Origin: a virus | Lineage: Duplodnaviria > Heunggongvirae > Uroviricota > Caudoviricetes | Strand: one strand, 5' to 3' | DNA: 46,907 nt | IMG/VR virus record: IMGVR_UViG_2651869724_000014 | Shown: one piece after another, positions 7,991 to 36,174 of the stretch | How the letters are laid out: the number at the start of each line of letters is the position of its first letter | How positions within the stretch are numbered: the stretch's first letter is position 1 | Translations under genes and position numbers: made by a program | Notes under the pieces: generated by a model | What the model was told of the DNA's origin: nothing | Databases searched by the model: none | What the model saw: the letters and a program-made list of their open reading frames with translations, nothing else

Positions 7991-8030
7991 AAGTCCTCCT
8001 GAAAATTACCTCATGACCAGAAATCAACAC

Positions 8031-9825: not shown

Positions 9826-9916
9826 GAGTCGCTCCATAAAACTGAACGCCAAAAGTTTAATAATCAAAACCAAAGAAAGTCAAGAAACAAAACCATCTGT
9901 GTTTTAAAATCAAAAC
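9826..9916. promoter_or_regulatory. Divergent immunity-region promoter/operator interval
   Basis: AT-rich 91-bp spacer between divergent cro-like and cI-like genes; operators not resolved. Confidence 0.35.
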
Positions 9917-10555: not shown

Positions 10556-10852
10556 CCAACCTCATCTATTTGATTAACTGTATGCCATCGTGGCGATGGC
10601 TTAACAGCTGCCTGCTTAAAATGTTTTGATAAAAAAACATTGACCTAAAAAGTTCATTTTTCTAAACTTCATTCATTCCCTCACCCCACCCCACCCCACA
10701 GAATGCAGGGCAATACTTCGAGTTACCAGGCAGTGGTCAGGGGTTAAGTAGCCAGCCCGAGGCGTAAGAACATGACGGCAGGGTTCAACTTTAATAACTA
10801 TGCAGCAGGTTTTTGTTCCGCTACCCCGGCGTTAAGGGGAAATGAGGTCAAC

Positions 10853-11008
10853 ATGGATACTATCGATCTTGGCAACAACGAATCTCTGGTGTACGGCGTG
10901 TTTCCCAACCAGGACGGCACATTCACCGCGATGACGTATACCAAAAGCAAAACGTTTAAAACCGAAAATGGTGCCCGTCGCTGGCTGGAAAGAAACTCAG
11001 GTGAGTGA
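10853..11008 (+). CDS. ydfA: YdfA-like small prophage protein
   Basis: 51 aa from ATG 10853 with GAGG RBS; first gene of a ydfA-ydfB-ydfC-dicF-dicB-ydfD arrangement like Qin. Confidence 0.6.
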   Translation: MDTIDLGNNESLVYGVFPNQDGTFTAMTYTKSKTFKTENGARRWLERNSGE

Positions 11009-11009
11009 T

Positions 11010-11138
11010 ATGGATTTCGACACAATCATGGAAAAGACTTACGAAGAATACTTCGAAGGCCTTGCCGAAGGCGAAGAAGCTCTCAGCTTCAGTGAGTTTA
11101 AACAGGCGCTTTCCAGCTCGGCAAAATCTAACGGCTGA
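11010..11138 (+). CDS. ydfB: YdfB-like small prophage protein (42 aa)
   Basis: MDFDTIMEKTYEEYFEGLAEGEEALSFSEFKQALSSSAKSNG; below the 60-aa ORF-track cutoff, translated by hand; position between ydfA and ydfC. Confidence 0.55.
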   Translation: MDFDTIMEKTYEEYFEGLAEGEEALSFSEFKQALSSSAKSNG

Positions 11139-11167
11139 TAAGCGAAGCAGCACCGCGAGGAATCAGT

Positions 11168-11386
11168 ATGCAGAAACGAGAACCCGTCATCATCGCGCCA
11201 GACTATACCGATGATGAACTTTATGAGTGGATGCGCCAGAAAATTAATGCAGCGCAGGATCTGAAATGGGCCAATGAAGCCAGGGCTAAGCAGGCTGAAA
11301 ATCTGTCCGCTCTGGAGCAGGATATCACCAATCTGGAAAAAGCAGCGGCATTAAGCATTGCCAGAATGATTACATACCCGCGTTAA
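11168..11386 (+). CDS. ydfC: YdfC-like prophage protein
   Basis: 72 aa, same length and position as Qin YdfC. Confidence 0.6.
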   Translation: MQKREPVIIAPDYTDDELYEWMRQKINAAQDLKWANEARAKQAENLSALEQDITNLEKAAALSIARMITYPR

Positions 11387-11726
11387 TAGCTAACCAACGA
11401 AGCTAAGGTTGGTAATTAAGGAGTTCTCCACGGGTGAGGTGGAGTGCGTGCGCCGGACACGGGTGAGCATCCGGCACTGACAGTTTACTGAAAGGATATT
11501 TCCATGAAAAGTCAGACCATAACGCGAAAGCGCACGGCGAGGTAGCTGGTTCATAGATAGCCTGTCGTTAAATTTTCGTCGACCGTGCGCTTCCGGTTGT
11601 GGCACTCCGCGAAATGGCGCGGCGGTAAGTATGGCGGGGTTATTCCTTCCCCGTTGAGGACACCGGGTTGTCAGGTTGACCATACGCTTAAGTGACAACT
11701 CCGCTGCAACGCCCTCTGTTATCAAT

Positions 11727-11784
11727 TTTCTGGTGACGTTTGGCGGTATCAGTTTTACTCCGTGACTGCTCTGCCGCCCTTTTT
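11727..11784 (+). ncRNA. dicF: DicF small RNA (ftsZ-targeting sRNA of Qin-type prophages)
   Basis: tttctggtgacgtttggcggtatcagttttactccgtgactgctctgccgcccttttt matches DicF as recalled, with terminal hairpin and T-run, between ydfC and dicB. Confidence 0.7.
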
Positions 11785-11953
11785 AAAGTGAATTTTGTGA
11801 TGCGGTGAATGCGGCTAAGCGCACGCGGAACAGTTAAAACCAAAAACAGTGTTATGGGTGGATTCTCTGTATCCGGCGTTAATTGTTAACTGGTTAACGT
11901 CACCTGGAGGCACCAGGCACCGCATCACAAAACTCATTGTTGAGGGCGCGAAA

Positions 11954-12142
11954 ATGAAAACGTTATTACCAAACGTTAATACGTCTGAAGGTTGTTTTGA
12001 AATTGGTGTCACTATCAGTAATCCTGTATTTACTGAAGATGCCATTAACAAAAGAAAACACGAACGGGAGTTATTAAATAAAGTATGCATTGTTTCAATG
12101 CTGGCCCGTTTACGTCTGATGCCAAAAGGATGTGCACAATGA
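11954..12142 (+). CDS. dicB: Cell-division inhibitor DicB
   Basis: 62-aa translation MKTLLPNVNTSEGCFEIGVTISNPVFTEDAINKRKHERELLNKVCIVSMLARLRLMPKGCAQ. Confidence 0.85.
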   Translation: MKTLLPNVNTSEGCFEIGVTISNPVFTEDAINKRKHERELLNKVCIVSMLARLRLMPKGCAQ

Positions 12143-12330
12143 ATCCAGTATTTGCACTTATTCTGACGGTTTTTCTTGTTTCCGGAGAGCCAGTTGATAT
12201 TGCAGTCAGTGTTCACAGAACAATGCAGGAATGTATGGCAGCAGCAACCGAACAGAAAATTCCAGGCAACTGTTATCCGGTCGATAAAGTTATTCACCAG
12301 GATAATAACGAAATCCCGGCAGGATTTTAA
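12139..12330 (+). CDS. ydfD: YdfD-like lysis-associated small protein
   Basis: 63 aa starting MNPVFALILTVFLVSGEPVD; ATG overlaps the dicB stop (caATGA). Confidence 0.65.
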   Translation: MNPVFALILTVFLVSGEPVDIAVSVHRTMQECMAAATEQKIPGNCYPVDKVIHQDNNEIPAGF

Positions 12331-12423
12331 AACAGCACCGTAATAAATATCCAGTTTCATTCTTATATGTCAGCAATGGCAGAGATTTGTTCACACTTAA
12401 ATCTGTGATGAGGTTTACCAATA

Positions 12424-14865
12424 ATGAGCACTGATAAAGAAGAATTTGCACTATATTGCGAAGCAAAAAATGACAAAGTAAGAAAACGCCTAGGAATTAA
12501 AGGTGGTTTTTACTGGACTACAGCAAAAAAATTATCTGTTGCAATCTCCCGCTGCATTACCGCAATGGATGACAACGATTATGATGAAGACGACTTTAAA
12601 AAACCCGTCCGCGTCAATTTGCCCGTTGTTGACGACCTTCCGCCAGAAGGCGTGTTTGATACTGAATTCTGCAACCGCTATGAAAAAGGCGGGAAAGATG
12701 GCATCACAATGACATTTATCGGCCCTTCCCCCTCTGTTCAGGACAAACCAGCCAGCACTGACAATACCAACATCAACGGCGAAGACATGACTGAGATTGA
12801 GGAGAGCATGCTTCTGCCTGTCTCCGGTCAGGAACTGCCCATTCGTTGGCTTGCTCAACACGGCAGCGAAAAACCAGTAACGCACGTTTCACGCGACGAA
12901 CTCCAGGCATTACACATTGCACGGGCTGAAGAACTACCGGCTGTTACTGCCCTGGCTATTTCGCATAAAACCAGTCTGCTCGACTCGCTGGAGATTCGCG
13001 ACCTCCACAAACTGGTTCGTGACACTGACAAAGTTTTCCCTAATCCTGGTAATTCAGACCTGGGACTAATAACTGCTTTTTTCGAAGCATACCTGGACGC
13101 TGACTACACTGATCGGGGTCTGCTGACAAAAGAGTGGATGAAAGGAAATCGTGTTTCACGCATCACCCGCACGGCTTCCGGTGCTAATGCTGGCGGTGGG
13201 AACAAAACCGATCGCAATCCGAATTTAGTACACACCCTCGACACACTGGATGTGGAGATTGCAGCAGCCACACTTCCGATGGATTTTAATATTTATGAAA
13301 TTCCGGGCAGCGTTTATCGTCGCGCAAAAGAAGTAGTCCTGAACAAAGAAAGTCCGTTCAAAGAATGGTCCGCAGCACTTCGTGCAACCCCGGGTATTCT
13401 GGACTATTCCCGCGCCGCTATTTTTGCACTTATCCGAAGCGCACACCCTGAATTTTATCACTACCCGGGACGCCTTCAGGGGTATATCAACGCCTATTTG
13501 ACGGAAACTGATCACGAGAACCCCAGCAAGGAAACTCTCACAGCTGCCCGGCATACGCCGGAAAAAGATATCCTGGAAAAAATTAACCGCGAGGTGGTTA
13601 CTGAGCGTGAAACAGAAGAAGAAAAACCACAACCATCTGACGCAATGGCAGGTGAACAGGCAACAACTGAAACAATGGAACCGGATACAACTGAACATGG
13701 CCAGAACGCGCAGTCGCTGGATGCTCAGTCGCAGGTGAGTTCCGCTAACCAAGTAAAAGTCACCGCTGACGAAGTAAACAAAATTATGCAGGCAGCCAAT
13801 ATCAGCCAGCCTGACGCCGATAAGTTACTTGCTGTATCGCGTGGTGAATTTGTTGAGGGGATTAGCGACCCTAATGATCCGAAATGGGTCAAGGGGATCC
13901 AGACTCGCGATTCTGTGAACCAGAACCAGCATGAATCGGAACGGAACGACCAAAAAGCGGAACAAAACAGCCCAAATGCGTTACAAAACGAGCCAGAAAC
14001 GAAACAATCCGAACCAGTAGCGCAACAGGAACCGGAAAAAGTCTGCACCGCCTGCGGTCAGAGCGGTGGCGGCAACTGCCCTGATTGTGGCGCGGTGATG
14101 GGCGACGCAACATACCAGGAAACATTCGATGAAGAGAATCAGGTTGAAGTTCAGGAAAATGATCCGGAGGAAATGGAAGGCGCTGAACATCCACACAAGG
14201 AGAACCCTGGCGGCAATCAGCATCACGCCAGCGATAATAAAACTGGCGAGGCGACAGATCCCTTAATTAAGGTGAATGGTCATCATAAGCTCACATCCAC
14301 CAGCAGAGCGGGGATTCATCTGATGATCGACCTTGAAACCATGGGAAAAAATCCCGATGCCCCGATTATCTCAATAGGCGCAATATTTTTCGATCCACAA
14401 ACCGGAGATATGGGACCGGAATTTAGCAAGACCATCGATCTGGATACTGCTGGCGGAGTCATTGATCGTGACGTCATTAAATGGTGGCTGAAGCAATCAC
14501 GTGAAGCGCAGTCTGCCATTATGACCGATGAAATCCCGTTAGATGATGCACTACTGCAATTGCGGGAATTTATCGACGAAAACTCCGGTGAATTTTTTGT
14601 TCAGGTCTGGGGTAATGGGGCCAACTTCGACAACGTGATTTTACGCCGTTCATACGAACGACAGGGTATCCCCTGCCCATGGCGCTACTGCAACGATCGC
14701 GATGTACGCACAATCGTTGAGCTGGGGAAAGCCATAGACTTCGATGCCAGAACTGCTATCCCATTCGAAGGTGAGCGCCATAATGCACTTGATGACGCTC
14801 GTTACCAGGCAAAATACGTTTCAGCTATCTGGCAAAAACTGATCCCGAGTCAGGCTGATTTTTAA
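12424..14865 (+). CDS. Full-length YdfE-family protein with zinc ribbon and C-terminal DnaQ-like DEDDh 3'-5' exonuclease domain
   Basis: 813 aa; CTACGQSGGGNCPDCG zinc ribbon; exonuclease motifs IDLETMG, WGNGANFDNVIL and HNALDDARYQAKYV. Confidence 0.6.
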   Translation: MSTDKEEFALYCEAKNDKVRKRLGIKGGFYWTTAKKLSVAISRCITAMDDNDYDEDDFKKPVRVNLPVVDDLPPEGVFDTEFCNRYEKGGKDGITMTFIGPSPSVQDKPASTDNTNINGEDMTEIEESMLLPVSGQELPIRWLAQHGSEKPVTHVSRDELQALHIARAEELPAVTALAISHKTSLLDSLEIRDLHKLVRDTDKVFPNPGNSDLGLITAFFEAYLDADYTDRGLLTKEWMKGNRVSRITRTASGANAGGGNKTDRNPNLVHTLDTLDVEIAAATLPMDFNIYEIPGSVYRRAKEVVLNKESPFKEWSAALRATPGILDYSRAAIFALIRSAHPEFYHYPGRLQGYINAYLTETDHENPSKETLTAARHTPEKDILEKINREVVTERETEEEKPQPSDAMAGEQATTETMEPDTTEHGQNAQSLDAQSQVSSANQVKVTADEVNKIMQAANISQPDADKLLAVSRGEFVEGISDPNDPKWVKGIQTRDSVNQNQHESERNDQKAEQNSPNALQNEPETKQSEPVAQQEPEKVCTACGQSGGGNCPDCGAVMGDATYQETFDEENQVEVQENDPEEMEGAEHPHKENPGGNQHHASDNKTGEATDPLIKVNGHHKLTSTSRAGIHLMIDLETMGKNPDAPIISIGAIFFDPQTGDMGPEFSKTIDLDTAGGVIDRDVIKWWLKQSREAQSAIMTDEIPLDDALLQLREFIDENSGEFFVQVWGNGANFDNVILRRSYERQGIPCPWRYCNDRDVRTIVELGKAIDFDARTAIPFEGERHNALDDARYQAKYVSAIWQKLIPSQADF

Positions 14866-14923
14866 TGTTCAACCCTAATTGCCGCTAACCGTATATAGTT
14901 AGCGGCGGTTATGAGATATAGCT

Positions 14924-15127
14924 ATGAGCAGCTTATTTTTAACCGAAGATGAATTGCTAATATTAACGGGCTGCAAATATGCAAGCCACCAGCGAAAATG
15001 GTTAATGGAAAACGGGCTTCCGTTCTATACCAATCGTAGTGGCAAACCGATTGTCAGCCGGGATCTATTTACCTGCAATAAAACTTTACCACCACGCGAG
15101 GTAGAGCCGAATTTTGGTGCGATCTGA
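14924..15127 (+). CDS. Excisionase-like protein (DUF4224-type)
   Basis: 67 aa, LFLTEDELLILTGCKYASHQRKWLMENGLPF, immediately upstream of int. Confidence 0.5.
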   Translation: MSSLFLTEDELLILTGCKYASHQRKWLMENGLPFYTNRSGKPIVSRDLFTCNKTLPPREVEPNFGAI

Positions 15128-16209
15128 TGGGAAGACGAAGGAAAAATCCTGAACACGAAAAATTACCTCCAAATGTATACCCAAATAAATATAGTTATGT
15201 ATGGAAACCAACATCCAGAGAATCTGTCACACTAACCGCCATCAAGGATGGTTTAGCTGCTTTATGGAAAAAGTATGAGGAAACTGTAAATAATCGCGAT
15301 CGTGCAATGACATTCGGTCGCTTGTGGGAAAAATTCCTCGCCAGCGCCTATTACAGTGACCTTAGTCCAAGAACACAAAAAGATTATCTGCAACATCAAA
15401 AAAAGTTGCTTGCCGTATTCGGTAAGGTACCAGCGGATTCCATAAAACCAGAACACATCCGTCGATACATGGACAAAAGAGGGGAGCAGAGTAAAACGCA
15501 AGCCAACCATGAAAAAAGCAGTATGTCCCGTGTTTACAGTTGGGGGTATGAGCGAGGGTACGTCAAGGCTAACCCATGTGCAGGTGTAAGTAAATTCAAG
15601 GCCAAAAACCGCGAACGATATGTAACCGACAAAGAATACCAGGCAGTATTAAGCGTTGCACCTCTTCCTGTTTTTATCGCAATGGAAATTGCCTATCTGT
15701 GTGCAGCGAGGGTTTCCGATGTGTTATCGCTGAAATGGGAACAGATTGGAAACGACGGGATATTCATCCAGCAAGGGAAAACCGGAAAAAAACAGATAAA
15801 AGCATGGAGTCCACGATTACAGGCAGCGATCGAAAAAGCAAAACAGTTACCAAAATCTGCCTATGTGATCAGCAATCAATACGGCAACCGATATATGTAC
15901 AAAGGCTTTAACGAAATGTGGGTAGAAGCAAGAAATCGTGCTGGAAAAATTTCAGGTATTTTAACCGACTTCACCTTTCATGATCTGAAGGCGAAAGGAA
16001 TTTCAGACTATGAAGGAAGCAGCCGGGATAAGCAACTTTTCTCTGGTCACAAAACCGAAGGGCAAGTGCTAATCTATGACAGGAAGGTTAAAGTTTCACC
16101 AACACTTGATGTCCCGTTACCTGAAAATATTCCAAGAAAATATTCCAAGAAAATATTCCAAGTAATTCCAAGTGTGATTTTTGTCACTGACTTAATGATG
16201 TGTAAGTGA
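15127..16209 (+). CDS. Lambdoid prophage tyrosine integrase
   Basis: 360 aa with tyrosine-recombinase catalytic region; ends 8 bp before the tRNA-Ser 3' end. Confidence 0.85.
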   Translation: MGRRRKNPEHEKLPPNVYPNKYSYVWKPTSRESVTLTAIKDGLAALWKKYEETVNNRDRAMTFGRLWEKFLASAYYSDLSPRTQKDYLQHQKKLLAVFGKVPADSIKPEHIRRYMDKRGEQSKTQANHEKSSMSRVYSWGYERGYVKANPCAGVSKFKAKNRERYVTDKEYQAVLSVAPLPVFIAMEIAYLCAARVSDVLSLKWEQIGNDGIFIQQGKTGKKQIKAWSPRLQAAIEKAKQLPKSAYVISNQYGNRYMYKGFNEMWVEARNRAGKISGILTDFTFHDLKAKGISDYEGSSRDKQLFSGHKTEGQVLIYDRKVKVSPTLDVPLPENIPRKYSKKIFQVIPSVIFVTDLMMCK

Positions 16210-16217
16210 TTGAATTT

Positions 16218-16307
16218 TGGCGGAGAGAGGGGGATTTGAACCCCCGGTGGAGTTGCCCCCACTCCGGTTTTCGAGACCGGTCCGTTCAGCCGCTCCGGCA
16301 TCTCTCC
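16218..16307 (-). tRNA. serU: tRNA-Ser (anticodon CGA)
   Basis: Minus-strand sequence GGAGAGATGCCGGAGCGG...CTCGAAAACC...GGTTCAAATCCCCCTCTCTCCGCCA: long variable arm, CGA anticodon loop, CCA end. Confidence 0.85.
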
Positions 16308-17298: not shown

Positions 17299-17374
17299 TC
17301 CTCTGTAGTTCAGTCGGTAGAACGGCGGACTGTTAATCCGTATGTCACTGGTTCGAGTCCAGTCAGAGGAGCCA
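17299..17374 (+). tRNA. asnT: tRNA-Asn (anticodon GTT)
   Basis: TCCTCTGTAGTTCAGTCGGTAGAACGGCGGACTGTTAATCCG...GGTTCGAGTCCAGTCAGAGGAGCCA, 76 nt. Confidence 0.85.
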
Positions 17375-18888: not shown

Positions 18889-19605
18889 CTAAATCGCTAA
18901 CAGTTCTGTTTTCCAGTATTCACTACCACTTTTATCACAGACATGTGAATATAATATCCTATCCATAATCCTAACAATTTCTTTAACATTATTTAGCTTA
19001 TCAATAACAGTATCTTTTGAAAGATTAATTGAAGAATATGAATGGGCTAACTCCGTGCGGCTATCAGAGAAAGACTGGAGCATGAACTCATAATCTTTTT
19101 TACCTTTCGCAGTCATTGCTTTTAATATATCTTTGATACCAAATCTATTAAAAAGAAGTTTGATATTTTTTTTGGAAGGATATTTTTTATCCATTATCAG
19201 CTGTTTTGGGACAATAACAGGCTTTACAGGAGAATTAGGTGACGATAACGCCTGAAGTTTATCCTTACACTTATTTAAGTCACTCATCATTATTGACTCA
19301 GAACCATGAGAAACGTAATTTATAAAATTTTTCTCTTGGTTTTTGAATAAAGAAAACAAGATAATTTCATCAGGTAGATGCGAAAGGCATCCGTTATTTT
19401 GGTTCAGCATGTCAATCCAATCTTCCAAAACATCTTTAATATAATCTTCGAATGCAGCAGAAACTCGAAATATCGCGTTATTATAAACACTATGTATAAT
19501 ATCTGTTCTTAATTCTTTTATTTTTGAAACATAACGAACCTGTTCAAGCAAATTGGAATGAATCTGCTCGAATTGTTTTCTAGATGCGCTTTTAATATAT
19601 GCCAT
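18889..19605 (-). CDS. Hypothetical partner of DUF262 protein (has an Rx4H motif, possible HEPN-like)
   Basis: 238 aa; start overlaps stop of upstream DUF262 gene at 19605; contains SRTELAHSY (R-x4-H); no HNH/DUF1524 motif seen. Confidence 0.35.
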   Translation of the reverse strand: MAYIKSASRKQFEQIHSNLLEQVRYVSKIKELRTDIIHSVYNNAIFRVSAAFEDYIKDVLEDWIDMLNQNNGCLSHLPDEIILFSLFKNQEKNFINYVSHGSESIMMSDLNKCKDKLQALSSPNSPVKPVIVPKQLIMDKKYPSKKNIKLLFNRFGIKDILKAMTAKGKKDYEFMLQSFSDSRTELAHSYSSINLSKDTVIDKLNNVKEIVRIMDRILYSHVCDKSGSEYWKTELLAI

Positions 19606-20720
19606 CAGTTGAAATACCGTTCAATGAAATTTTTCATTGTGCTAATACGATAATGAACCGATTGCGTCGCCGAAGTGCCAGAAGTAATCGACTCATTAAA
19701 ACGCTCCTCTGATGTTATTCTTTGAAACTCTATTAAGAAATCCTTAAGTTTTGTTGCATCAAGTTCGTTTATCATATCCTGATTAAATTTTGATACCATA
19801 AACCCGACAATTAGAGCATCAAATAAAGCAGAATTGAAATTTCTTACTTGAGGCTCTAAGTTTTCATTTAGAATTCTAAATGCTTTTTTACCAAACAATT
19901 TATTAATACAGTTTAATGCACCAAGAAATCTACTACGCCACTCCAAGGCAACATCAGGTTCAATATTTTGTTTTTCAGAACTAAAATCATTAAGGAATTT
20001 CTTTAATGGTTTTTTATATGGTGTCACAGAATATGAAAGTGCGAATGCTCTCAATATGAGTTCATTATTCTTCATTCGTGTGTCATTTTTAATTCCTGTT
20101 AAGTCTCTCCATACTTTCTCCTCACTTATTTCGTCAATCATAGTAAATAATGGACCATGATAAACTCCATGACGTACCTCCTGAGGATTTAATTGTACTG
20201 CACCTGTATTTATTCTTTCAAAAACATCAATTTTAATTTGAGGGTGAGTTTCTTTTAATATGGTTATGCATCTCAATGTGCGATTTAAAATATGCCTACG
20301 GAATCTCGCGTCCAGTGATGAAAACGAATTCCCCTCCAATTCTGGATATGCTGTCAATCCCTGTAATTCAAAACCATCCTCAATAAATAGTTTAATTGAA
20401 GTCAACCGTTGATTACCATCAATAACAGATAAACTCTCATCTTTCTCTTGGTTTAAATAAATAACAGGGATAGGACACTGGATTATTAAAGACTCAATTA
20501 ATCTTGATGCCTGCCCTCTACTCCAAACATATTTCCTTTGAAAATCAGGAATAAACACAGTACCATTTTTCAAATAGTCGACGAGTGTTGATATTGAAAA
20601 ATCGTAAGTCTCGGTATGCAATCGACGCTGCTCAGGGGGAATATCAACGATAGAAATATCATCATCATCAAATATTGGGAAAAGTTTATCCGCAAGTTTT
20701 TTGGCATCATTAACAGACAT
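19605..20720 (-). CDS. DUF262 (ParB/Srx-like) domain protein, GmrS-like
   Basis: IPDFQRKYVWSRGQASRLIESLIIQCPIPVIYL and VIDGNQRLTSI are the DUF262 signature blocks. Confidence 0.6.
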   Translation of the reverse strand: MSVNDAKKLADKLFPIFDDDDISIVDIPPEQRRLHTETYDFSISTLVDYLKNGTVFIPDFQRKYVWSRGQASRLIESLIIQCPIPVIYLNQEKDESLSVIDGNQRLTSIKLFIEDGFELQGLTAYPELEGNSFSSLDARFRRHILNRTLRCITILKETHPQIKIDVFERINTGAVQLNPQEVRHGVYHGPLFTMIDEISEEKVWRDLTGIKNDTRMKNNELILRAFALSYSVTPYKKPLKKFLNDFSSEKQNIEPDVALEWRSRFLGALNCINKLFGKKAFRILNENLEPQVRNFNSALFDALIVGFMVSKFNQDMINELDATKLKDFLIEFQRITSEERFNESITSGTSATQSVHYRISTMKNFIERYFN

Positions 20721-20921: not shown

Positions 20922-22199
20922 ATGTTAAAGAATACCAAGGAATGTGCCAACTCTGTATCAAGTGTGACGAATGCCATTGAAAGGGCCAAGGAACTATCAG
21001 GACTCGTCGTATCACGATTAAAATCCGAAGGCATGTATGCGGTTGGTAATGTGGATGGTTTATACCTTCGCATCCGAAATCAGTCCCGTGCATGGGTTCT
21101 TTGCGTGGCTATGGGAACCCGAATCAACAATCTCGGTAGAACAGTTCCAAGACGTTTGAATATGGGGCTTGGCCCTTACCCGGAAGTCTCCTTAGCCGAA
21201 GCGCGTGACAAAGCGCGTGAGCTACGTAAACAAATCCGTAATGGTATTAATCCCCTTCAAGAAAAACACGAACAAAAAGCCCGGCAGGAAATACTGGCCC
21301 GGAAGAAAAAGACCTTTGCCGAATGTTGTGAAGAAGTGCTGGAGGTCAAAGACAGTGAGATGAAGAACAAAAAACATCTCGCGCAATGGCGTTCCACACT
21401 GGAAACCTATGCCTACCCTTTCATTGGCAAAAAGGCCGTTAGTGAAATCACCAAAGTCGATCTTCTGGCAATACTGGAACCTATCTGGTTAACCAAGAAT
21501 GAAACTGCCAGTCGTCTACGTGGACGTATTGAAACAGTGATCGATTACGCCAAGGCCAAAGAATACTTTGAAGGTGATAATCCTGCCGCATGGAAAGGTA
21601 TGCTGAAACCTCTGTTGCCTCAGCCAAGTAAAGTTCAGATCACCAAACACCATGCGGCCCTTCCCTATAACCAGATCGGCTCTTTTATGAAAGAACTACG
21701 TGAACGAAGCGGCGTTTCTCCTCGTGCGCTTGAGTTTGCCATACTGACCGCAGCACGCTCAGGTGAAATTCGTGGTGCCGAGTGGTCAGAGATCGATCTT
21801 GAAGGTAAAACGTGGACCATACCTGCAAGCCGAATGAAAGCAGCGAAGGAGCATCGAGTTCCTCTGTCTGATGCTGCTGTTGCCTTGTTAAAAGCTTTAC
21901 CACGCTTTAAGGGTATCAGTTTTGTATTCCCTGCCACTCGGAAGGGACAACTCTCGGATACGGCTTTACTGGCAGTCCTAAAGCGAATGGGATATACCGA
22001 TTTAACACAGCATGGGTTTAGATCGACATTCCGTGATTGGGCTGGTGAAACGACCAACTATCCGCGTGAGGTAATTGAACATGCGTTAGCTCACCAGTTG
22101 GCAGATAAGGCAGAGGCTGCGTATCAACGTGGGACGTTATGGCCTAAGCGGGTGGCGTTGATGGATGAGTGGTCGGGGTTTTGTCTTGCCAATGTTTAG
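20922..22199 (+). CDS. Second tyrosine integrase (int2) of the nested element
   Basis: GLYLRI...YPEVSLAEARDKAREL arm-binding N-domain and a recombinase C-domain; distinct from int1. Confidence 0.7.
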   Translation: MLKNTKECANSVSSVTNAIERAKELSGLVVSRLKSEGMYAVGNVDGLYLRIRNQSRAWVLCVAMGTRINNLGRTVPRRLNMGLGPYPEVSLAEARDKARELRKQIRNGINPLQEKHEQKARQEILARKKKTFAECCEEVLEVKDSEMKNKKHLAQWRSTLETYAYPFIGKKAVSEITKVDLLAILEPIWLTKNETASRLRGRIETVIDYAKAKEYFEGDNPAAWKGMLKPLLPQPSKVQITKHHAALPYNQIGSFMKELRERSGVSPRALEFAILTAARSGEIRGAEWSEIDLEGKTWTIPASRMKAAKEHRVPLSDAAVALLKALPRFKGISFVFPATRKGQLSDTALLAVLKRMGYTDLTQHGFRSTFRDWAGETTNYPREVIEHALAHQLADKAEAAYQRGTLWPKRVALMDEWSGFCLANV

Positions 22200-23176: not shown

Positions 23177-24097
23177 ATGATAGGAATAAAAATGATTTTA
23201 GTTATAACATCTAGCTTTGATAAAACAATTGATTACATAGTAAAAAAACATAGCATTAACAATTTTTACAGGTTAGATGTTGATAATTTCTCTGAATATA
23301 AATTTTCTTACACTAAAAAAGGATTCAGTATTGTTAATAAAAATAATAATGAATTGCTCGAGAGTGAATGCAGATCCATCTATTATAGAAAACCAACTCC
23401 TGAGAATATTATCAATAAAATTGATTCAAAATATCATAATCATTGCTTTCGAGAAGTATTCGCTTTTGTTGAAGGGATTGCTGAGTCGTTTACTGGAAAA
23501 TGCTTATCCAAGCCATCAATTATAAAAAGAGCAGATAACAAAGTATTGCAAGCAAAAACTGCAATTGATATTGGATTCACAATTCCTGATTTTATATTGA
23601 CAAATAATTTCGATTGTTTCAAAAACACTTTGACAATCAATAGCATTGTCAAACCGTTATCAAGTGGATTGATAGAAAATCAGAAAGAAAAGGAATTTGT
23701 TCAAACAAATATGGTTGACATGAATAAAAACACAGAAACATTAAAATATTGTCCAGCTTATTTTCAATCGTATACAAAAAAAGAATTCGAGGTGAGATCA
23801 ACATTCATAAATGGTAAAGATTATTCGGTAAAAATAATATCTAAAAATAAAATTGACTGGAGAAAAGACAATAACGAAATATTCTATTCAACAATAAAAA
23901 TGCCTGATACTATAAAAGAAAAATGTCTGAGGTATATGTCAGTCATGAATATTTCTTTTGGATGTTTTGATTTTATAGTTTTTGATGGTGAATGGTTCTT
24001 CTTAGAGATGAATGCAAATGGTCAATGGGCATGGCTAGAAAATGAAACGAATATTAATGTGTCAAGTGAGTTAGTGAGGTTTTTAAATGAAGTATAA
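23177..24097 (+). CDS. ATP-grasp family ligase
   Basis: VKPLSSG and C-terminal FGCFDFIVFDGEWFFLEMNANGQWAWLE are ATP-grasp-like blocks. Confidence 0.55.
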   Translation: MIGIKMILVITSSFDKTIDYIVKKHSINNFYRLDVDNFSEYKFSYTKKGFSIVNKNNNELLESECRSIYYRKPTPENIINKIDSKYHNHCFREVFAFVEGIAESFTGKCLSKPSIIKRADNKVLQAKTAIDIGFTIPDFILTNNFDCFKNTLTINSIVKPLSSGLIENQKEKEFVQTNMVDMNKNTETLKYCPAYFQSYTKKEFEVRSTFINGKDYSVKIISKNKIDWRKDNNEIFYSTIKMPDTIKEKCLRYMSVMNISFGCFDFIVFDGEWFFLEMNANGQWAWLENETNINVSSELVRFLNEV

Positions 24098-24941
24098 TTT
24101 CATTTACTTTATTATAAAATTATTAAACTTTTCATTATTATTCCACACATCATTAGATGAGAATTTTGATACTATTGAAAAAAGAAATGTTATTAATTCC
24201 ACGTCATTAAGAGTATCTTTATTATGTTTTCCTGTGGGGAGTAAAATAATATATTTATTAACTTTCAATAAAAAATCAAACCGTATTTTGGATAAATCTA
24301 ACTTCCAGTTTTTTACGAGCATACACTATGATACACTTTGCCCAAGAATATCGGGCACAAAAATTGAAGAATATGTCATGGCGTATAGTCAATATATTAA
24401 ATCAATTCTACCTAAAAGAAGGAAGGAACAAGAAGATTTTTTAAAGCAGCGCCTTTCCGAAAATAACGATAGTTTATCTAATCTTCAAAGTAAGATAACA
24501 CATTATACTACTATCACTATTGCCCTCACAGGGGCAGTGGTTTATCTACAAACCATTCTACCATCCGCAAATACAAATTTTGCAATAAGATTTATTTCCT
24601 ATTATTTATTTTTTATATTGCTTGTTGATATAATTAATTTATTTCTTTTTCTAAGAAAAGGAATGATGGTAAGTAGTTTTTCTCAATCAAGTTTTAAATC
24701 ATTAAAATTTGATAACAGTAATTATGCCTTAACGAAGGCTATATATCGTGACTGGATAGCAAGAAAAGATGACGTCAGATATTTTGCAGGTATAGTTAGA
24801 AATGCCGAAAAATATCTATACAGATCGATTTTAGTTGGAATCACGCTATACATGTTTTCCATTTCACTGCAATATTATAGCGATAATCCAGTGAATGAAA
24901 TCATATTCACGCCGTCAGGCATGTTTTTAGCTGTAAATTAA
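24087..24941 (+). CDS. Polytopic membrane protein, translationally coupled to the ATP-grasp gene
   Basis: 11-bp overlap with the ATP-grasp gene; hydrophobic segments (TITIALTGAVVYLQTILP, FISYYLFFILLVDIINLFLFL, ILVGITLYMFSISLQYY). Confidence 0.45.
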   Translation: MKYNFIYFIIKLLNFSLLFHTSLDENFDTIEKRNVINSTSLRVSLLCFPVGSKIIYLLTFNKKSNRILDKSNFQFFTSIHYDTLCPRISGTKIEEYVMAYSQYIKSILPKRRKEQEDFLKQRLSENNDSLSNLQSKITHYTTITIALTGAVVYLQTILPSANTNFAIRFISYYLFFILLVDIINLFLFLRKGMMVSSFSQSSFKSLKFDNSNYALTKAIYRDWIARKDDVRYFAGIVRNAEKYLYRSILVGITLYMFSISLQYYSDNPVNEIIFTPSGMFLAVN

Positions 24942-24952
24942 AAGGATATAAT

Positions 24953-25297
24953 ATGAAACCGTATACTATGCTCTATAGTGAATCTTTCGAAATAAACGCA
25001 TCAACAATTTCAAGTAAAACAAACTCTACCGTAAAAACATTTACCACAGAACCTAATGATGAAGATTATCTCAACACTTGGACAACGCATACAAGAGTCA
25101 TAGAGAACCAAGATGAGGATTACAGTTTAGCCCCCAGCAACTGTGAAAGAAAATACGAAATATCTAATGAAAAGCAGTCTGCTATGGATACATTTTTTAC
25201 AGAATCTATTGAAAATAATGATGATGATTTTATAGTATGTAGAACATTTGTAACAAATGTCGTTGAATCAGGTGATGATGATTTCTATTTTAACTAA
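24953..25297 (+). CDS. Acidic Thr/Asp/Glu repeat peptide, candidate graspetide precursor
   Basis: 114 aa with repeated blocks TFTTEPNDEDY, ENQDEDY, TFFTESIENNDDDF, TFVTNVVESGDDDFYF; AAGGA-type RBS; terminator follows. Confidence 0.4.
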   Translation: MKPYTMLYSESFEINASTISSKTNSTVKTFTTEPNDEDYLNTWTTHTRVIENQDEDYSLAPSNCERKYEISNEKQSAMDTFFTESIENNDDDFIVCRTFVTNVVESGDDDFYFN

Positions 25298-28834: not shown

Positions 28835-30304
28835 ATGGCGATTTTCCATCTGGATTTTAAAATTGTGAAACGAAGCGAGGGCATGACTTCCGTTGCGAAA
28901 GCTGCCTACCATGCCCGTACACGTATTACAGATGATCGCATTGGCGAAACATTTGATTTCAGCCACAGAACAGATCTTCATGGTCATATTATATTAGCGC
29001 CCGTTTCCGCACCTGCTCATATTATTGAAAGCTCCTCAGCACTCTGGAATGAAGTTGAAAGAGTGGAACGCCAGAACAACGGTCAAACAGCCCGTTATTT
29101 TGATGTCGCTATTCCCGTAGAACTCAACAATGATGACAAGAAAAAATTGGTTGCCGAATACTGCCAGAAGAACTTTGTTGATAAAGGAATGATTGCTGAT
29201 ATCGCATTCCATGACTTAGACAGTAAGAACCCACACGCTCACGTCATGTTAACCCTGAAAACCATCGGGCCCGAAGGCTTCGGTAAAAAAGACAGAACTT
29301 GGAATGATAAGAAGATGGTTGTTCAGTGGCGTGAGTCGTGGGCCACGATGTCAAACAGCTACCTTGAAGCCGCAGGCAGTGAAGAACGTATCGATCACCG
29401 TTCTCTCAGAACTCAATGTGCTGATGCCCTTGCTCAGGCAGAAGAAGCATTCAGTGCTGAAGAGAAAGCATTCTGGCTTGCCAAAGCAACGGAAACAAAC
29501 CGCCCGGCAATGCAGCGTGTTCATCGTGCTAAATGGAATGATACCGAGTCTCAGGAACAACGAGCTGCTGAACAAGCTCAACGCGATCATCAAATTGAGG
29601 AAGCAAAGAAGGTCTACGCCACATTCAGTGAGCTACCACTGGAAATCGTTGTTGATGTTCGCTCTTACTCTGTTTACCAGCTTCCTGAACCGGAAGAGAT
29701 CGTTCTCCCTGACTACCCGGCAACAACAAAGCAGCAACCGATTCATGCAGAGTCAGAACCATACAGAAGACCAGCCGTAAAATCTTACCATGCCCCCAAT
29801 AAGGTCAGTAAAGTTGGTGCTGCAGCTAAGAAATCCCCTGTTCTGGTTGCACCTGAACCAAATAAATCCACTAAACTGAAAAACCCTTCTTCTCAAAACA
29901 CCAGAGCGATGAAGCGTGCTCCTGTGAGGAGTAGGAAACAGACCAAGCCCCGCCAGAATGGTTTGTTTAAACGTTTCACGCTACTGATAGTAGGATATAT
30001 AAGAGAGAAATTTATATGGGCCAGAATGAAACCCGATACCACTGATGCTGACCATGATAAGCGTATCGCAGAGAACTATGTCTATGATGAAGTGCTGGGT
30101 GTCAATGTTCCACGCTCAGAGTTTGAAAAACGTACCAAATTTAACGATAGTAACTATAAATTAACACCTAATGAGATCAAGCGTTTCCCAAGCCGTCCTA
30201 AGCGAGTTCAATTAGAGTCAGAGAGCGGTATGGATGTCCTCCCTAAAAATAATCAATTTAACTCGTCAAAAATAAACTTCGTCAAACCAAATTTTAGATC
30301 ATAA
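28835..30304 (+). CDS. mobA: MobA/MobL-family relaxase
   Basis: MAIFHLDFKIVKRS...AKAAYHAR (catalytic Tyr context) and NPHAHVMLTLK (His-rich motif) parallel RSF1010 MobA. Confidence 0.7.
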   Translation: MAIFHLDFKIVKRSEGMTSVAKAAYHARTRITDDRIGETFDFSHRTDLHGHIILAPVSAPAHIIESSSALWNEVERVERQNNGQTARYFDVAIPVELNNDDKKKLVAEYCQKNFVDKGMIADIAFHDLDSKNPHAHVMLTLKTIGPEGFGKKDRTWNDKKMVVQWRESWATMSNSYLEAAGSEERIDHRSLRTQCADALAQAEEAFSAEEKAFWLAKATETNRPAMQRVHRAKWNDTESQEQRAAEQAQRDHQIEEAKKVYATFSELPLEIVVDVRSYSVYQLPEPEEIVLPDYPATTKQQPIHAESEPYRRPAVKSYHAPNKVSKVGAAAKKSPVLVAPEPNKSTKLKNPSSQNTRAMKRAPVRSRKQTKPRQNGLFKRFTLLIVGYIREKFIWARMKPDTTDADHDKRIAENYVYDEVLGVNVPRSEFEKRTKFNDSNYKLTPNEIKRFPSRPKRVQLESESGMDVLPKNNQFNSSKINFVKPNFRS

Positions 30305-30412
30305 AATTACAGATGATTATCAATTGCAATATGAACAAGATTTTGTTATGTTTTATTTCACATGGATCTTGAATGCCCCCATCTTATTCAAAGATAGTAT
30401 CAAAGGAAAATT

Positions 30413-31933
30413 ATGATTAGTGAAATCACAACAAATGGCACTAAAATTAAACTAAGAAATAATAGTGCTAATGATATTAATATTTATGATATGGATTCTT
30501 TATCTTTACTTATTGGTATAAATGGTTCAGGGAAGACAAAATCCTTATGTAGCATAATTAACTATTTCTTTCCTAAAAATAACATGCAATTAACAGGCGA
30601 TTGTACAATATTAAACTCTAGCGGTGAAAGAATAGATCATACTGAAATTAGAAACTGGGGAGTTATATATTTCACCCCATTACCATTTAGACCAAAGTTG
30701 AATATTAGAGATAGTAGGTTTATTAACGCATCTCCAAGCTTGAATGGAAAAAATACTGTATTTGACCTTATCGAATACAAGGATTTAATATCTGACTTTG
30801 ATATTTATCCAAAAGTTGTTGCCATGAAGATGACAAACATTAGCAAAGTTGCAAGATTAATACTTAATATCGCTTTAAATAATAAAGATCTTAATCAGAA
30901 CAGCATACTACTGAATCACGGTCTCCTTGATATTTTGTCATTACGTGCAAAAATTGATGATAATATAGATAATGACGATTCAGACACTATAAAATATAGT
31001 ACCAATAAAAATATTCAAGCAGAAATTGATTCTATTATGCAGCGTTGCTCCGCGCATCTGATTGATGAAATACTTCATCGCGCAGGTGAAGAAAAACTCT
31101 TTTCCATATTTAGCATAATAGATTGGGCAAGTACAAAAAAACAGTTCAGTGATAACGTAGTAATTCCATTATTAAACAAACACTTAAATTTAAACATCCG
31201 TTCAAATAGAAAACTCAGAGAGACTAAATTATATTTAGAATGTGAAAGCAAAATAGATAGTTTACTTAATATTATAAAATATGAGGTAAAAAACCATGAA
31301 ATCATAAAGGATTCAAGACTTAATGAATCAACTTTAAGGTTAGAATTCGAAATAGACCCTTACGAAGGACAAAGGTTATTAACAAGATACAATTTGAATG
31401 ATATTTTTAAAATTGATTTTTCTGATATGAGTTCTGGGCAAATTGCTATTCTAGCTCAAATTGGCGCCATCTCTGACTCTATTACTAAACTGTCAGATAG
31501 AGGTATCAGATCAATACTACTATTAATAGATGAAGGGGACGCTTTTTTACATATCGATTGGCAAAGGAAATATATTTCTAATTTAAATAAAATGCTAGGC
31601 TCATTAAAAACATCTCTGGGCATAGATAATTTACAACTTATTCTAGCCTCGCACTCTCCATTGTTAGCCACAGACGTTCCCAAAGACTTTATAACTAGAC
31701 TACCAATTGAAAATGCTACGTTAAGTGGTTTTGCATCTCCTCTTTATATTTTACTAAATGAATCTTTTGGAACTAAAACCATTGGAGAATTTGCAACAAA
31801 TAAAATTGAAACCATCATCGACAAAATACCTAATAGAATACTGACTGAAAAAGATTATTACCTTATAAATAATATAGACAACCCTCTAATAAAAAGCGAA
31901 ATCGAACGCTTAATTATGCAGCATAAGGATTGA
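30413..31933 (+). CDS. ptuA: Septu PtuA-like ABC/SMC-type ATPase
   Basis: Walker A GINGSGKT, signature-like MSSGQ, Walker B LLLIDEGDAF, followed by H-loop ASHSP; 506 aa. Confidence 0.65.
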   Translation: MISEITTNGTKIKLRNNSANDINIYDMDSLSLLIGINGSGKTKSLCSIINYFFPKNNMQLTGDCTILNSSGERIDHTEIRNWGVIYFTPLPFRPKLNIRDSRFINASPSLNGKNTVFDLIEYKDLISDFDIYPKVVAMKMTNISKVARLILNIALNNKDLNQNSILLNHGLLDILSLRAKIDDNIDNDDSDTIKYSTNKNIQAEIDSIMQRCSAHLIDEILHRAGEEKLFSIFSIIDWASTKKQFSDNVVIPLLNKHLNLNIRSNRKLRETKLYLECESKIDSLLNIIKYEVKNHEIIKDSRLNESTLRLEFEIDPYEGQRLLTRYNLNDIFKIDFSDMSSGQIAILAQIGAISDSITKLSDRGIRSILLLIDEGDAFLHIDWQRKYISNLNKMLGSLKTSLGIDNLQLILASHSPLLATDVPKDFITRLPIENATLSGFASPLYILLNESFGTKTIGEFATNKIETIIDKIPNRILTEKDYYLINNIDNPLIKSEIERLIMQHKD

Positions 31934-31945
31934 AGGTCTTCATAT

Positions 31946-32878
31946 ATGATTATTTCAATTAAAAACAACTGGGAAAAAGCAATAAAATTACATACACATT
32001 ATTTAAATAATTTGATATGCAACTTTTTAAATAAATCCATTCCTAGTTCTGAAGGACGAGACGAAGCTAAAAAATTTATTCTAGATGTGCATCACCTATT
32101 AATACTTGCCGGTAAACAAGATATATTGGAGAGTATTGATATATATAGAGAGTACAAACACAGATTGTCAATAACGCCGGATATATCGAAGCAATTCGAC
32201 AAAGAAATAAGATCTATTTTTAATTACAATAAGTTTGTTAGGAAAACAGGATCATGGAATGCATATACTCTATGTAAAAAATCAATAAGCAGAACATGTC
32301 CGTATTGCAATCAAGCATATGCTTTTTCGATACAAAAAAAGAATCGCGGTTTTCGTCCTACATTAGATCATTTTTATAGTAAGGATGACTTTCCTCACCT
32401 TGCATTGGTAATTAACAATTTAATCCCAAGTTGTAGTTCATGTAACTCAAGCCTTAAAGGCACAATTGATTTCTTCGCAAATGAACATTTAAACCCACTG
32501 TGGGATGATGAAGTTATAAATTTCGTTTTAACTCATGAGGATGGTGTTTTAACATTAATAGACGGAATGATTTCATCACCAGAAAAAATAAAAATAAACA
32601 TATCTTACGATACTACAAATATTTCAATTAAAAACACAGTAAATACTTTTTTGATAAACGAAAGATATCAAGAAATGACAATAGAAGCAATAGAATTTGC
32701 AACTGCCAAATTAAATCTTGAATATGCCGTATCTACTGGAATATCATATTTCAAAAATAACTCAGAAAGTAGTATATTAAGATTTGACAAAAGAGAATAT
32801 AAAAAATATTTGCTCGGTAAATTATATTTAGATATATATAATAAAATGCCAAATGCAAATATAGTTAACACTCGTTAA
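31946..32878 (+). CDS. ptuB: Septu PtuB-like HNH endonuclease
   Basis: HNH-type motifs CPYCNQ, LDHFYSK, NNLIPSCSSCNSSLKG; 13 bp downstream of the ATPase gene. Confidence 0.65.
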   Translation: MIISIKNNWEKAIKLHTHYLNNLICNFLNKSIPSSEGRDEAKKFILDVHHLLILAGKQDILESIDIYREYKHRLSITPDISKQFDKEIRSIFNYNKFVRKTGSWNAYTLCKKSISRTCPYCNQAYAFSIQKKNRGFRPTLDHFYSKDDFPHLALVINNLIPSCSSCNSSLKGTIDFFANEHLNPLWDDEVINFVLTHEDGVLTLIDGMISSPEKIKINISYDTTNISIKNTVNTFLINERYQEMTIEAIEFATAKLNLEYAVSTGISYFKNNSESSILRFDKREYKKYLLGKLYLDIYNKMPNANIVNTR

Positions 32879-32910
32879 CTTCACGAATGAATAAGAAAAA
32901 ATTAAATTCA

Positions 32911-32936
32911 TATGAGGGCAGCAACTCGCCCTCATA
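32911..32936. terminator. Hairpin between convergent genes
   Basis: tatgagggc-agcaactc-gccctcata; weak T-run. Confidence 0.3.
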
Positions 32937-32977
32937 AGCCCCTAGCCATGCTCGTCACAGATCTTTAGAGGGAACTG

Positions 32978-33508
32978 TTAATTGGCTCTCCAGCCATTGC
33001 TGGTTTTAACAAGATTCATGGCACCATCAGCAGAATCATTCATTCCTTTAACGCTGGCGAAGGCTTTTTTGTCAATCCAGCCCGGAACGTCAACCAACTT
33101 CCATGTATAAGTCACGCGAACTACTTTCTGATTACCGTTTCCCGGCTCCGTCCATTCCTTAATCTCATCAACAGCACGACGACCAACACAGGCACCGTCT
33201 GCTGTGCTCCAGACTTTGGCTTTTTTGCCTTCCTCTGTTATCCCTAATACGTTCGAGTCATAGCCCTGTTCAAAAACCATCAGGCCCTGCTCAATAAAAC
33301 CGTCGAGGATCACTGAATTGGTCCCTGTGCCAGTCGAATCACGTAGTGGCTTGGCAAGACGGATGGGGAAGCTGGTGTTATTGTTATCCAGCGAGAAGCA
33401 GTATTTGCCCTGCCCAATCTTGGCATTAATCGCTTTCTCAAACTCACCTTTCTCACCACATCCCGCCAGTGCCAGAGCTGCGCCAGCAACGAGTAAAATC
33501 TTCTTCAT
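32978..33508 (-). CDS. Putative lipoprotein
   Basis: MKKILLVAGAALALAGC lipobox; higher GC than neighbours. Confidence 0.45.
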   Translation of the reverse strand: MKKILLVAGAALALAGCGEKGEFEKAINAKIGQGKYCFSLDNNNTSFPIRLAKPLRDSTGTGTNSVILDGFIEQGLMVFEQGYDSNVLGITEEGKKAKVWSTADGACVGRRAVDEIKEWTEPGNGNQKVVRVTYTWKLVDVPGWIDKKAFASVKGMNDSADGAMNLVKTSNGWRAN

Positions 33509-34907: not shown

Positions 34908-35930
34908 TTAATTCCCTGTTATTATTTTGCTTAGAATTTCGTCAATATATTCGGTTGTAACTATAAACGCATTTTTACCAATCTCACTTCGAAATATTTG
35001 GCATTCATCACTATGAAATTTACTAATGAAAAAATCAAATGAACACTGTGCTATAGCCTTATTAATACCATCCACGTTTGGTTTATCTTCTGGATTTGGC
35101 GTTGCATAAAGTAGCGAATATGAATCTAATGGAATATATATACATTTTAAATCATCATTACTTTCATAGAATGGCTTAAACTTTCGTTCCCCAGACACTT
35201 CAAAGATTACAATACTATCTCCTAAAATCAAAGATTGATTTGTTTTCAATACTTTGTAATGCATATTCTTATAAATATTACTTTTCTTATCCTCAGATGA
35301 AACCAAAACATCTAACTGAACCTTTTTTACTATTTCAGGTATTTTTGATATTATTTCTTGCTCAAACTTCGGAACTAATGTTGATAGCATCTTTTCTGCA
35401 GCATTTGGTAGCCATAATTGAACGTTATCAAAAAACATGGAGTTATATTGCTCATGTAGACTTGCTGGTATTGGTAGTTTATTTAACTCATTTTGAAGTA
35501 ATTCTTTGATTGTTTTTGGATTTCTTTGGAAATAATCAATAAGAGTTTCCTTGTCTAGCAATCTGTTTTTTAATTGCTCACCAAAATATGCCCATGAATC
35601 TATCATGTTTTCTCTTAAGTTTTTTGTTCTAATCTCCATATGATAAATAAACTCGGCTAAATCTTTCCTGTTGTCTAGGTTGTAAGTCCCATCGACTAAA
35701 CTATTAAGTATGCGTGAATAACTGTATGTTTCGTTTTCTGTTATTTTTTTATCAACGCTTGAATCGCCATAGTGAGAATAAAACTTGTTTTCCAAACCAA
35801 TATTCTCTACTATCATGTTTTCCTTGAAACAATCTTTTCTATACCAGTTAGTAAAATACTTCCCATTTTTTTCGTTAGAAAAACCTCTTTGTAAAAAACG
35901 TGGAATAAAATGTTGCCTATTCCCTGCCAT
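34908..35930 (-). CDS. DUF4238-like protein (candidate single-gene defence)
   Basis: N-terminus MAGNRQHFIPRFLQRGFS resembles the conserved DUF4238 block; GGAG RBS upstream of ATG at 35930; AT-rich. Confidence 0.45.
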   Translation of the reverse strand: MAGNRQHFIPRFLQRGFSNEKNGKYFTNWYRKDCFKENMIVENIGLENKFYSHYGDSSVDKKITENETYSYSRILNSLVDGTYNLDNRKDLAEFIYHMEIRTKNLRENMIDSWAYFGEQLKNRLLDKETLIDYFQRNPKTIKELLQNELNKLPIPASLHEQYNSMFFDNVQLWLPNAAEKMLSTLVPKFEQEIISKIPEIVKKVQLDVLVSSEDKKSNIYKNMHYKVLKTNQSLILGDSIVIFEVSGERKFKPFYESNDDLKCIYIPLDSYSLLYATPNPEDKPNVDGINKAIAQCSFDFFISKFHSDECQIFRSEIGKNAFIVTTEYIDEILSKIITGN

Positions 35931-36174
35931 TATCTTCTCCTCATAGCAAATAAATATGGACAATATATTACCAACATTCTAACTATCATCAATGATTAAA
36001 ACAGAGGAACAAAAGGATTCTCTCTCAGCGAATGGGAACAATGGAACAGCAGCGGTTTCTTCGTAATCGGACTGAAACCGTAGTATTGCATCGGAACAAA
36101 AAATTAACTTACCTTCCATCGCTCATCCTCCTCCTGTAGTTATCAGACTAAATATTTTACCAGAACATAGGTTG

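Follow-up and report, generated by a model that had tools for sequence, protein, structure and literature searches.

The subject of this analysis is a pair of adjacent genes at positions 30413-32878 of a 46,907-nucleotide (nt) stretch of DNA filed as a Caudoviricetes virus record (IMG/VR IMGVR_UViG_2651869724_000014; the whole stretch is hereafter called the window), where they lie within an integrative island described below. The first gene encodes a PtuA-like ATPase of the ABC/SMC type and the second a PtuB-like zinc-finger HNH nuclease, and the two are considered, with good confidence, to form a stand-alone Septu-type anti-phage module that would act by abortive infection. Both open reading frames (ORFs) are intact and lie on the + strand, the ATPase gene at 30413-31933 (ATG start, 506 amino acids) and the nuclease gene at 31946-32878 (ATG start, 310 amino acids). 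The spacer between them, read directly from the sequence, occupies 31934-31945 on the same strand (AGGTCTTCATAT) and is 12 nt long, rather than the 13 bp given in the original prediction, which had been made from the window's letters and ORFs. A Shine-Dalgarno sequence of the AAGGA type precedes both starts, that of the ATPase gene lying 7 nt before its ATG and that of the nuclease gene overlapping the 3' end of the ATPase gene, and both start codons are in line with the consensus N-termini of the homologous proteins (MIxxI… and MIISIxxNW…, respectively). With strong homologs (E = 0 and 1.6e-203) and a location in DNA of 28-30% guanine-plus-cytosine (GC), the two ORFs are not chance occurrences.

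Motifs, predicted domains and nearest relatives of the two proteins

The identification of the first protein draws on its ORF, its motifs, hidden Markov model (HMM) matches, Foldseek and profile searches. It carries a Walker A motif (GINGSGKT, residues 35-42), an ABC signature (MSSGQ, 339-343), a Walker B motif (LLLIDE, 369-374) directly followed by the GD of the D-loop (together LLLIDEGD, 369-376), and an H-loop (SHS, 413-415). The proposal of a 506-residue ATPase with Walker A, ABC-signature-like and Walker B motifs was borne out by the comparison of 58 homologs, down to 26% identity, across which G35, N37, G38, G40, K41, S340, G342, D373, E374, G375, D376 and H414 are invariant. Pfam families AAA_21 and AAA_15 were both matched above their gathering scores. 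An AlphaFold2 (AF2) model (pLDDT 80.3) predicts an N-lobe at ~1-142, a helical insert of ~150 residues at ~143-295 and a C-lobe at ~296-430, followed by a flexible, low-confidence linker at ~431-458 and a three-helix domain at 459-505; a Pfam scan of the insert and the C-terminal domain alone returned no domain.

Searches with this model and with the family profile converged on PtuA. The top 29 Foldseek matches in the PDB are PtuA chains (Retron-Eco7/Ec78/Ec83 and Septu; best 3.4e-8), followed by AriA, Rad50, RecF and OLD. The family profile matched Ec83 PtuA (4e-9), Septu PtuA (2e-8) and retron I-A PtuA (5e-8) in the PDB, and then AriA (1.5e-4). In PADLOC-DB the best model is PDC-M62A (5.2e-23), and many PtuA models come next at 1e-11 to 1e-8 (best 8.7e-12). 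The PtuA/PtuB-like architecture named in the original prediction thus stood up to HMM, profile and fold searches, which place the ATPase nearest PtuA, and defence-system HMM annotation did not assign it to an unrelated family.

The fold of the ATPase also matches Rad50, RecF, SMC and OLD, and a weak match was obtained to TIGR04435, annotated as a restriction system-associated AAA family ATPase (7.3e-7). Both stand-alone and retron PtuAB are known to nick supercoiled plasmid DNA in vitro, the stand-alone complex being inhibited by ATP (PMC12819146). Taken together, these features would suit a DNA-targeting, restriction-like or anti-plasmid system in which an SMC/Rad50-like ATPase senses the ends or topology of foreign DNA and the HNH nuclease cuts the invader while the host is spared. 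Such a system is nevertheless considered unlikely, since both of the E. coli PtuAB systems studied cleave tRNA-Tyr in vivo and behave as abortive infection systems (PMC13096335, PMC11555353), and the window pair has neither a sequence sign of self/non-self discrimination nor a conserved methyltransferase partner. The Gln of the ABC signature (MSSGQ) aligns with Q361 of Ec78 PtuA, and because this residue is kept the ATPase may be competent for hydrolysis, whereas the PtuA of stand-alone E. coli Septu was reported to have Leu at this position and to be without ATPase activity (PMC12819146).

The second protein comprises extra N-terminal helices, an HNH/zinc core and a helical C-terminal region. 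Its core motifs are CPYC (118-121), DH (141-142), N158 and CSSCN (163-167), and the core residues C118, C121, D141, H142, N158, C163, C166 and N167 form a ββα-Me (HNH) site with a four-Cys zinc finger. That this 310-residue protein is an HNH endonuclease was likewise upheld, its motif residues being invariant across 55 homologs that reach down to 28% identity. The Pfam HNH family scored just under threshold (20.5 against 21.4), and the best PADLOC-DB model is PDC-M62B (1.5e-41; residues 13-244 against model positions 11-257 of 328), followed by PDC-M01B (~1e-13) and PtuB (6.8e-10). The sole PDB match of the nuclease family profile is retron I-A PtuB (the TIGR02646 protein 9n69_F; E 0.003), across the CxxC…H…N core. 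The spacing of 16 between H142 and N158 equals that between H75 and N91 in the PtuB of the experimentally tested Septu EcB88 (PMC13096335). A helical C-terminal region is predicted at 226-300.

The N-terminal extension includes four predicted helices within residues 13-91 and the invariant residues W9 and H16. The first Cys of the zinc finger is at position 118 here, against position 43 in Retron-Eco7 PtuB (PMC12673091), and the nuclease therefore has ~75 extra N-terminal residues. A Pfam scan of this extension and of the C-terminal region found no domain. The extension is an integral part of the nuclease family, because most of the top 150 homologs (~295-335 amino acids) align from position 1 and the PDC-M62B model also covers it. 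This family is large, with 794 clusters (50% identity) at E ≤ 1e-30 when 1.84 billion representatives were searched with the profile. Some homologs are longer still (408-458 amino acids: P0057, P0085, P0086, P0088, P0244 and P0252; an example is encoded at 8001-9374 of the metagenomic contig L009) and, because their match to the family profile falls into two stretches, an additional ~120-170 residues are present at the N-terminus, possibly as a duplicated N-terminal helical region. The extension raises a further possibility, held only tentatively, that the pair represents an uncharacterised sister clade of Septu in which the N-terminal region of the nuclease serves in its own right to sense phage or to select the substrate, with a trigger or an RNA or DNA target other than tRNA-Tyr.

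A co-diverging pair with changing neighbours

The order of ATPase gene followed by HNH gene was found at 10 of 10 other loci, in every case between unrelated flanks. The loci come from Pseudomonas (L004), Ralstonia (L005), Stenotrophomonas (L007), the metagenomic contig (L009), Providencia (L012), Phytobacter (L013), a Yersiniaceae contig (L014), Morganella (L015/L016) and two Firmicutes (L002, L003); a single-protein search of genome contigs yielded only two distant Firmicute loci. Most of the other loci, which are distant relatives, have a gene overlap of 4 nt, and the Morganella copy has the same 12-nt gap as the window. The divergence of one partner follows that of the other (Mantel r = 0.94), as calculated from 30 partner pairs matched by source contigs of identical size in both hit lists, and none of 2000 permutations reached this value. 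The pair is a self-contained, obligate and co-diverging unit.

Its surroundings vary widely. The pair is also present on Pantoea plasmids and Bacillus cereus-group megaplasmids, and tblastn against phage genomes revealed no full-length copy. In Phytobacter, its neighbours are a Gabija-like OLD-TOPRIM ATPase with a UvrD helicase and a ResIII/methyltransferase pair resembling restriction-modification; in Ralstonia, a Lamassu-like LmuB_C protein and AbiH; and in Stenotrophomonas, genes for Vsr, WYL and DUF6361 proteins. The Providencia and Yersiniaceae copies adjoin prophage or island integrases, and a Morganella copy (L016) lies at the smpB locus. The cassette is mobile and recurrently placed beside defence systems.

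Carriage on mobile DNA, namely the mobilizable island of the window, the Pantoea and Bacillus plasmids and the integrase-adjacent sites, would also be expected of an addiction or stabilisation module, with the ATPase restraining a toxic HNH nuclease in the manner of an antitoxin, loss of the island killing or arresting the cell, and defence being secondary or absent. The cytotoxicity of released retron PtuAB (PMC12819146) and the position of the pair among the maintenance genes for RepL, H-NS and PIN proteins agree with this proposal. It is nonetheless held to be quite improbable: some copies, such as that of Pseudomonas, lie at ordinary chromosomal sites away from any mobile element, the Gabija, restriction-modification, Lamassu and AbiH genes beside other copies are in keeping with defence islands, and the characterised homologs are triggered by phage and not by loss (PMC13096335). 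A role in addiction and the preferred role in defence are compatible with each other.

The island and its cargo slot

The pair region is 99.9% identical to that of E. coli O127:H6 (enteropathogenic E. coli, EPEC) E2348/69 (L001), where the proteins are annotated as 'AAA family ATPase' (WP_000622558.1) and 'hypothetical protein' (WP_000587168.1). It is found in only 10 of 5,426 complete E. coli genomes, always on the chromosome. In the window, an exact 24-nt direct repeat of the 3' end of tRNA-Asn (attL/attR, 17351-17374 and 45796-45819) bounds a 28.4-kb element with genes for two P4-type integrases, a PilV/pilin remnant, a TraD-like protein and a MobQ relaxase, together with RepL, H-NS, PIN_12, DUF4238 and DUF6387 proteins. 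Given the tRNA-Asn repeats and the content of integrase, relaxase and other genes, the element is an integrative mobilizable island, the genes of which serve mostly mobility and maintenance. It is inserted at the mtfA-proximal tRNA-Asn in the window and at the yeeO-proximal tRNA-Asn in E2348/69. The relaxase gene (28835-30304) and the second integrase gene (20922-22199) are intact in the window and pseudogenes in E2348/69 (through an internal stop and a frameshift, respectively), and the island as found in the window may have kept its capacity for mobilization. Two PLSDB 'plasmid' records filed under E. coli, NZ_OL790696.1 (4.80 Mb) and CP088875.1 (393 kb), carry the chromosomal-type tRNA-Asn island; as the 4.8-Mb record is the size of a chromosome, matches to the island in a plasmid database do not equate to carriage on plasmids.

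The MobQ gene (NCBIfam NF041496, 252 bits against a cutoff of 200) ends 108 nt before the ATPase start, confirming that the pair adjoins a relaxase gene. With the pair immediately downstream on the same strand, it could be supposed to be a conjugative-mobilisation accessory that works with the relaxase in DNA processing. Comparative context effectively refutes such a relaxase-linked function, and it is regarded as exceedingly improbable. A relaxase gene adjoins the pair at no other locus of the 10 examined, GC falls from 0.45 to 0.30 at the junction, and E2348/69 has an intact pair next to a mobQ pseudogene. Moreover, a sister island (L011, E. coli CP088875.1) keeps the relaxase gene and the lipoprotein gene that lies beyond the pair, and carries other cargo between them. 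Because no relaxase accompanies the pair at the 10 other loci, its adjacency here is incidental, and the pair is exchanged cargo of the island.

The limits of this cargo are well marked. Homology to the sister island in blastn (92%) stops at 30201 and resumes at 32978, leaving a variable segment at 30202-32977, and the GC of the pair (0.30 and 0.28) compares with 0.45 for the relaxase gene and 0.48 for the lipoprotein gene. It is apparently at the junction between the latter two that islands of this tRNA-Asn family exchange cargo. In the sister island, the corresponding cargo (7403-9094) consists of an unrelated 380-residue protein without a Pfam or PADLOC match and a small ORF.

The Morganella morganii copy (L015/L016) is 89% identical at the nucleotide level over positions 30107-33047 of the window, and from this span the mobile module measures ~2.9 kb and includes 306 nt of upstream sequence. 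The Morganella cassette beside smpB keeps ~95 nt of the 3' end of the relaxase gene and ~70 nt of the 3' end of the lipoprotein gene, which suggests its acquisition from an island of the E. coli tRNA-Asn family. The upstream region that travels with both genes (30107-30412, + strand) covers the final ~200 nt of the relaxase ORF and probably holds the promoter and 5' untranslated region of the cassette. As a promoter scan returned 22 candidates against 16.8±4.2 expected, which is not above shuffled background, we only infer the position of this promoter. The HNH and lipoprotein genes converge, and in the interval between them a hairpin with a 9-bp stem and an 8-nt loop (TATGAGGGC…GCCCTCATA) was read directly at 32911-32936, with no strand assigned. 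It is possibly a terminator shared by the two genes, a role that is only conjectured since a consensus terminator scan did not flag the hairpin.

A second defence-type pair is present at 18889-20720 on the - strand, directly after a P4-type integrase gene. It comprises a DUF262/GmrSD_N protein (19605-20720), which matches the PADLOC models NsnA of Menshen (5.7e-83, full length) and PD-T4-2_A (9.4e-44), and, after it, a RiboL-PSP HEPN protein (18889-19605) for which PADLOC gave no match. The original prediction took the ATPase/HNH pair as confirmation of a defence island. The pair alone is no proof of this in an island given over largely to mobility and maintenance genes; in combination with the DUF262/HEPN pair, it supports the view that the island carries defence cargo.

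Other genes were also noted in the window. Its lowest-GC stretch (23177-25297; 0.285-0.29) holds a gene for an MvdD-like pre-ATP-grasp protein (23177-24097) as well as two further ORFs in the same direction (24087-24941 and 24953-25297), which had no Pfam match. Possible conflict or toxin genes are those encoding the DUF4238 protein (34908-35963, - strand; 0.30 GC), the PIN_12 protein (41292-42644, + strand), which is preceded by an unannotated 212-residue ORF, and, in a prophage region, an FRG-domain protein (5995-7329, + strand); those among them that were tested had no PADLOC match. That prophage (1-16300) is lambdoid (Rac/Qin-like), lies to the left of tRNA-Ser and encodes a Q antiterminator, DUF968, an S24 repressor, a RecE-like exonuclease VIII, an integrase, sok RNA (5195-5369), DicF (11728-11779), STnc100 and AgvB.

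Family placement, proposed mode of action and comparison with known systems

A number of observations weigh against a simple assignment of the pair to Septu. The Foldseek TM-scores of the ATPase are low (0.26-0.30), as expected from a flexible multi-domain protein, and a single-sequence PDB search gave it only marginal matches to PtuA, the Ec78 ATPase and AriA (E 0.02-0.04). With the nuclease, neither a single-sequence PDB search nor Foldseek with its model returned a match, and the protein is ~75-100 residues longer at its N-terminus than the PtuBs of solved structure. Both proteins fall far below the cutoffs of the NCBIfam equivalogs, the ATPase scoring 30.8 bits against 500 for NF041760 (PtuA) and the nuclease 23 bits against 150 for NF041761 (PtuB). 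The alignment of the ATPase to PDC-M62A is confined to residues 191-503 (model positions 262-600 of 633), and PDC-M62 itself is a bioinformatic label, no experimental test of it or of the window clade having been found. Finally, the Pseudomonas copy has housekeeping neighbours only and no defence genes.

The analysis supports a placement of the window pair as PtuA/PtuB-like by predicted fold and architecture, on a divergent sister branch rather than among canonical members. The description of the pair as a known system consequently held for its Septu-like kind and failed for its clade, for which PDC-M62A/B are the best models. The pair is best filed under the PADLOC candidate PDC-M62, in a short-ATPase branch with an N-terminally extended PtuB-like nuclease. 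PDC-M62 is the best-scoring family for both window proteins and for every relative tested, and PDC-M62B covers most of the nuclease, its N-terminal extension included. The window ATPase differs in being short and in aligning only in part to the PDC-M62A models, which have 597-746 positions and were built on long ATPases (~600-750 amino acids). A 688-residue Ruminococcus ATPase matches PDC-M62A from end to end, whereas the ~500-residue proteobacterial ATPases, that of the window included, align over their C-terminal ~170-310 residues only, and for this reason the pair is assigned to a short-ATPase proteobacterial branch. PADLOC calls of PDC-M62 made in the Bacillus cereus group mostly fall on the same loci as calls of Septu (PMC11811056).

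Homologs provide the model for the complex, its trigger, its substrate and the abortive outcome. In published structures, paired PtuA C-terminal domains clamp the three-helix C-terminal domain of PtuB, and the domain order of both proteins agrees with that predicted here (PMC12673091, PMC12819146). By analogy, the PtuA-like ATPase probably oligomerises through its ATPase heads and the inserted helical domain, and its C-terminal domain of three helices probably grips the helical C-terminal portion of the nuclease and thereby holds it inactive. The presence of matching helical elements in the two proteins and the co-divergence of the partners agree with such a complex. A cue from the phage would then license the zinc-finger HNH site; for characterised Septu, either a structural protein of the phage or an altered ATP state has been proposed as the cue. 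Once active, the nuclease would cleave nucleic acid, leading to growth arrest of the infected cell and a block to the spread of phage. Upon infection, Septu EcB88 and Retron-Eco7 cleave the variable loop of host tRNA-Tyr, for which the Walker and HNH residues are needed (PMC13096335, PMC11555353).

This placement offers a function-level annotation for two E2348/69 genes labelled only as an AAA family ATPase and a hypothetical protein in RefSeq. The compact ~2.9-kb cassette, common to Escherichia and Morganella and complete with its native upstream region, is directly clonable. While no concept is changed, the practical value lies in the prediction of phage host range and in the comparison of phage sensing among PtuAB branches.

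The definition of Septu used for comparison is that conveyed by papers citing the original descriptions. As in Septu, the ATPase gene lies directly upstream of the HNH gene in a two-gene operon. The ATPase is of the ABC type with the Walker A and Walker B motifs that are essential in tested systems, and the AF2 map, with TM-scores of only the values given above, presents the split ATPase head, helical insert, linker and C-terminal helices of PtuA; the nuclease shares with PtuB a four-Cys zinc-finger HNH core and a helical C-terminal domain. With respect to stand-alone Septu (E. coli ATCC 25922, PDB 8EE4/8EE7/8EEA; Septu EcB88), structure-aligned identity is only ~12-16%, PADLOC PtuA/PtuB are not the best models, the NCBIfam equivalogs fail, the window nuclease is longer at its N-terminus and the ATPase signature has Gln in place of the Leu reported (PMC12819146).

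The PtuA/PtuB effectors of type I-A retrons (Retron-Eco7/Ec78 and Ec83; PDB 9KJX, 9NNK, 9N6B and 9E8Z) differ in their genetic setting, the window pair being flanked by relaxase and lipoprotein genes and not by a reverse transcriptase gene or msr/msd. The window ATPase, moreover, has no detectable retron-specific N-terminal extension, profile alignments beginning at residue 85-88 of retron PtuA, and the cutoffs of NF041760 and NF041761 are failed in this comparison too. An association with a retron was rejected, as Rfam detected no retron RNA in the window and no reverse transcriptase was present among the island ORFs scanned.

PARIS (AriA/AriB), Gabija (GajA) and OLD share with the window ATPase the ABC ATPase superfamily (AAA_15/AAA_21) with a helical insert, and AriA is its next neighbour after PtuA (5.8e-4 by structure, 1.5e-4 by profile). 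Those systems employ a TOPRIM nuclease, either separate as AriB or fused as in GajA and OLD, whereas the partner here has an HNH zinc finger and the fold of PtuB, and neither Pfam nor PADLOC gave a TOPRIM match for the window pair. Across these comparisons, the analysis shows the PDC-M62 candidate to be homologous in fold to Septu PtuAB.

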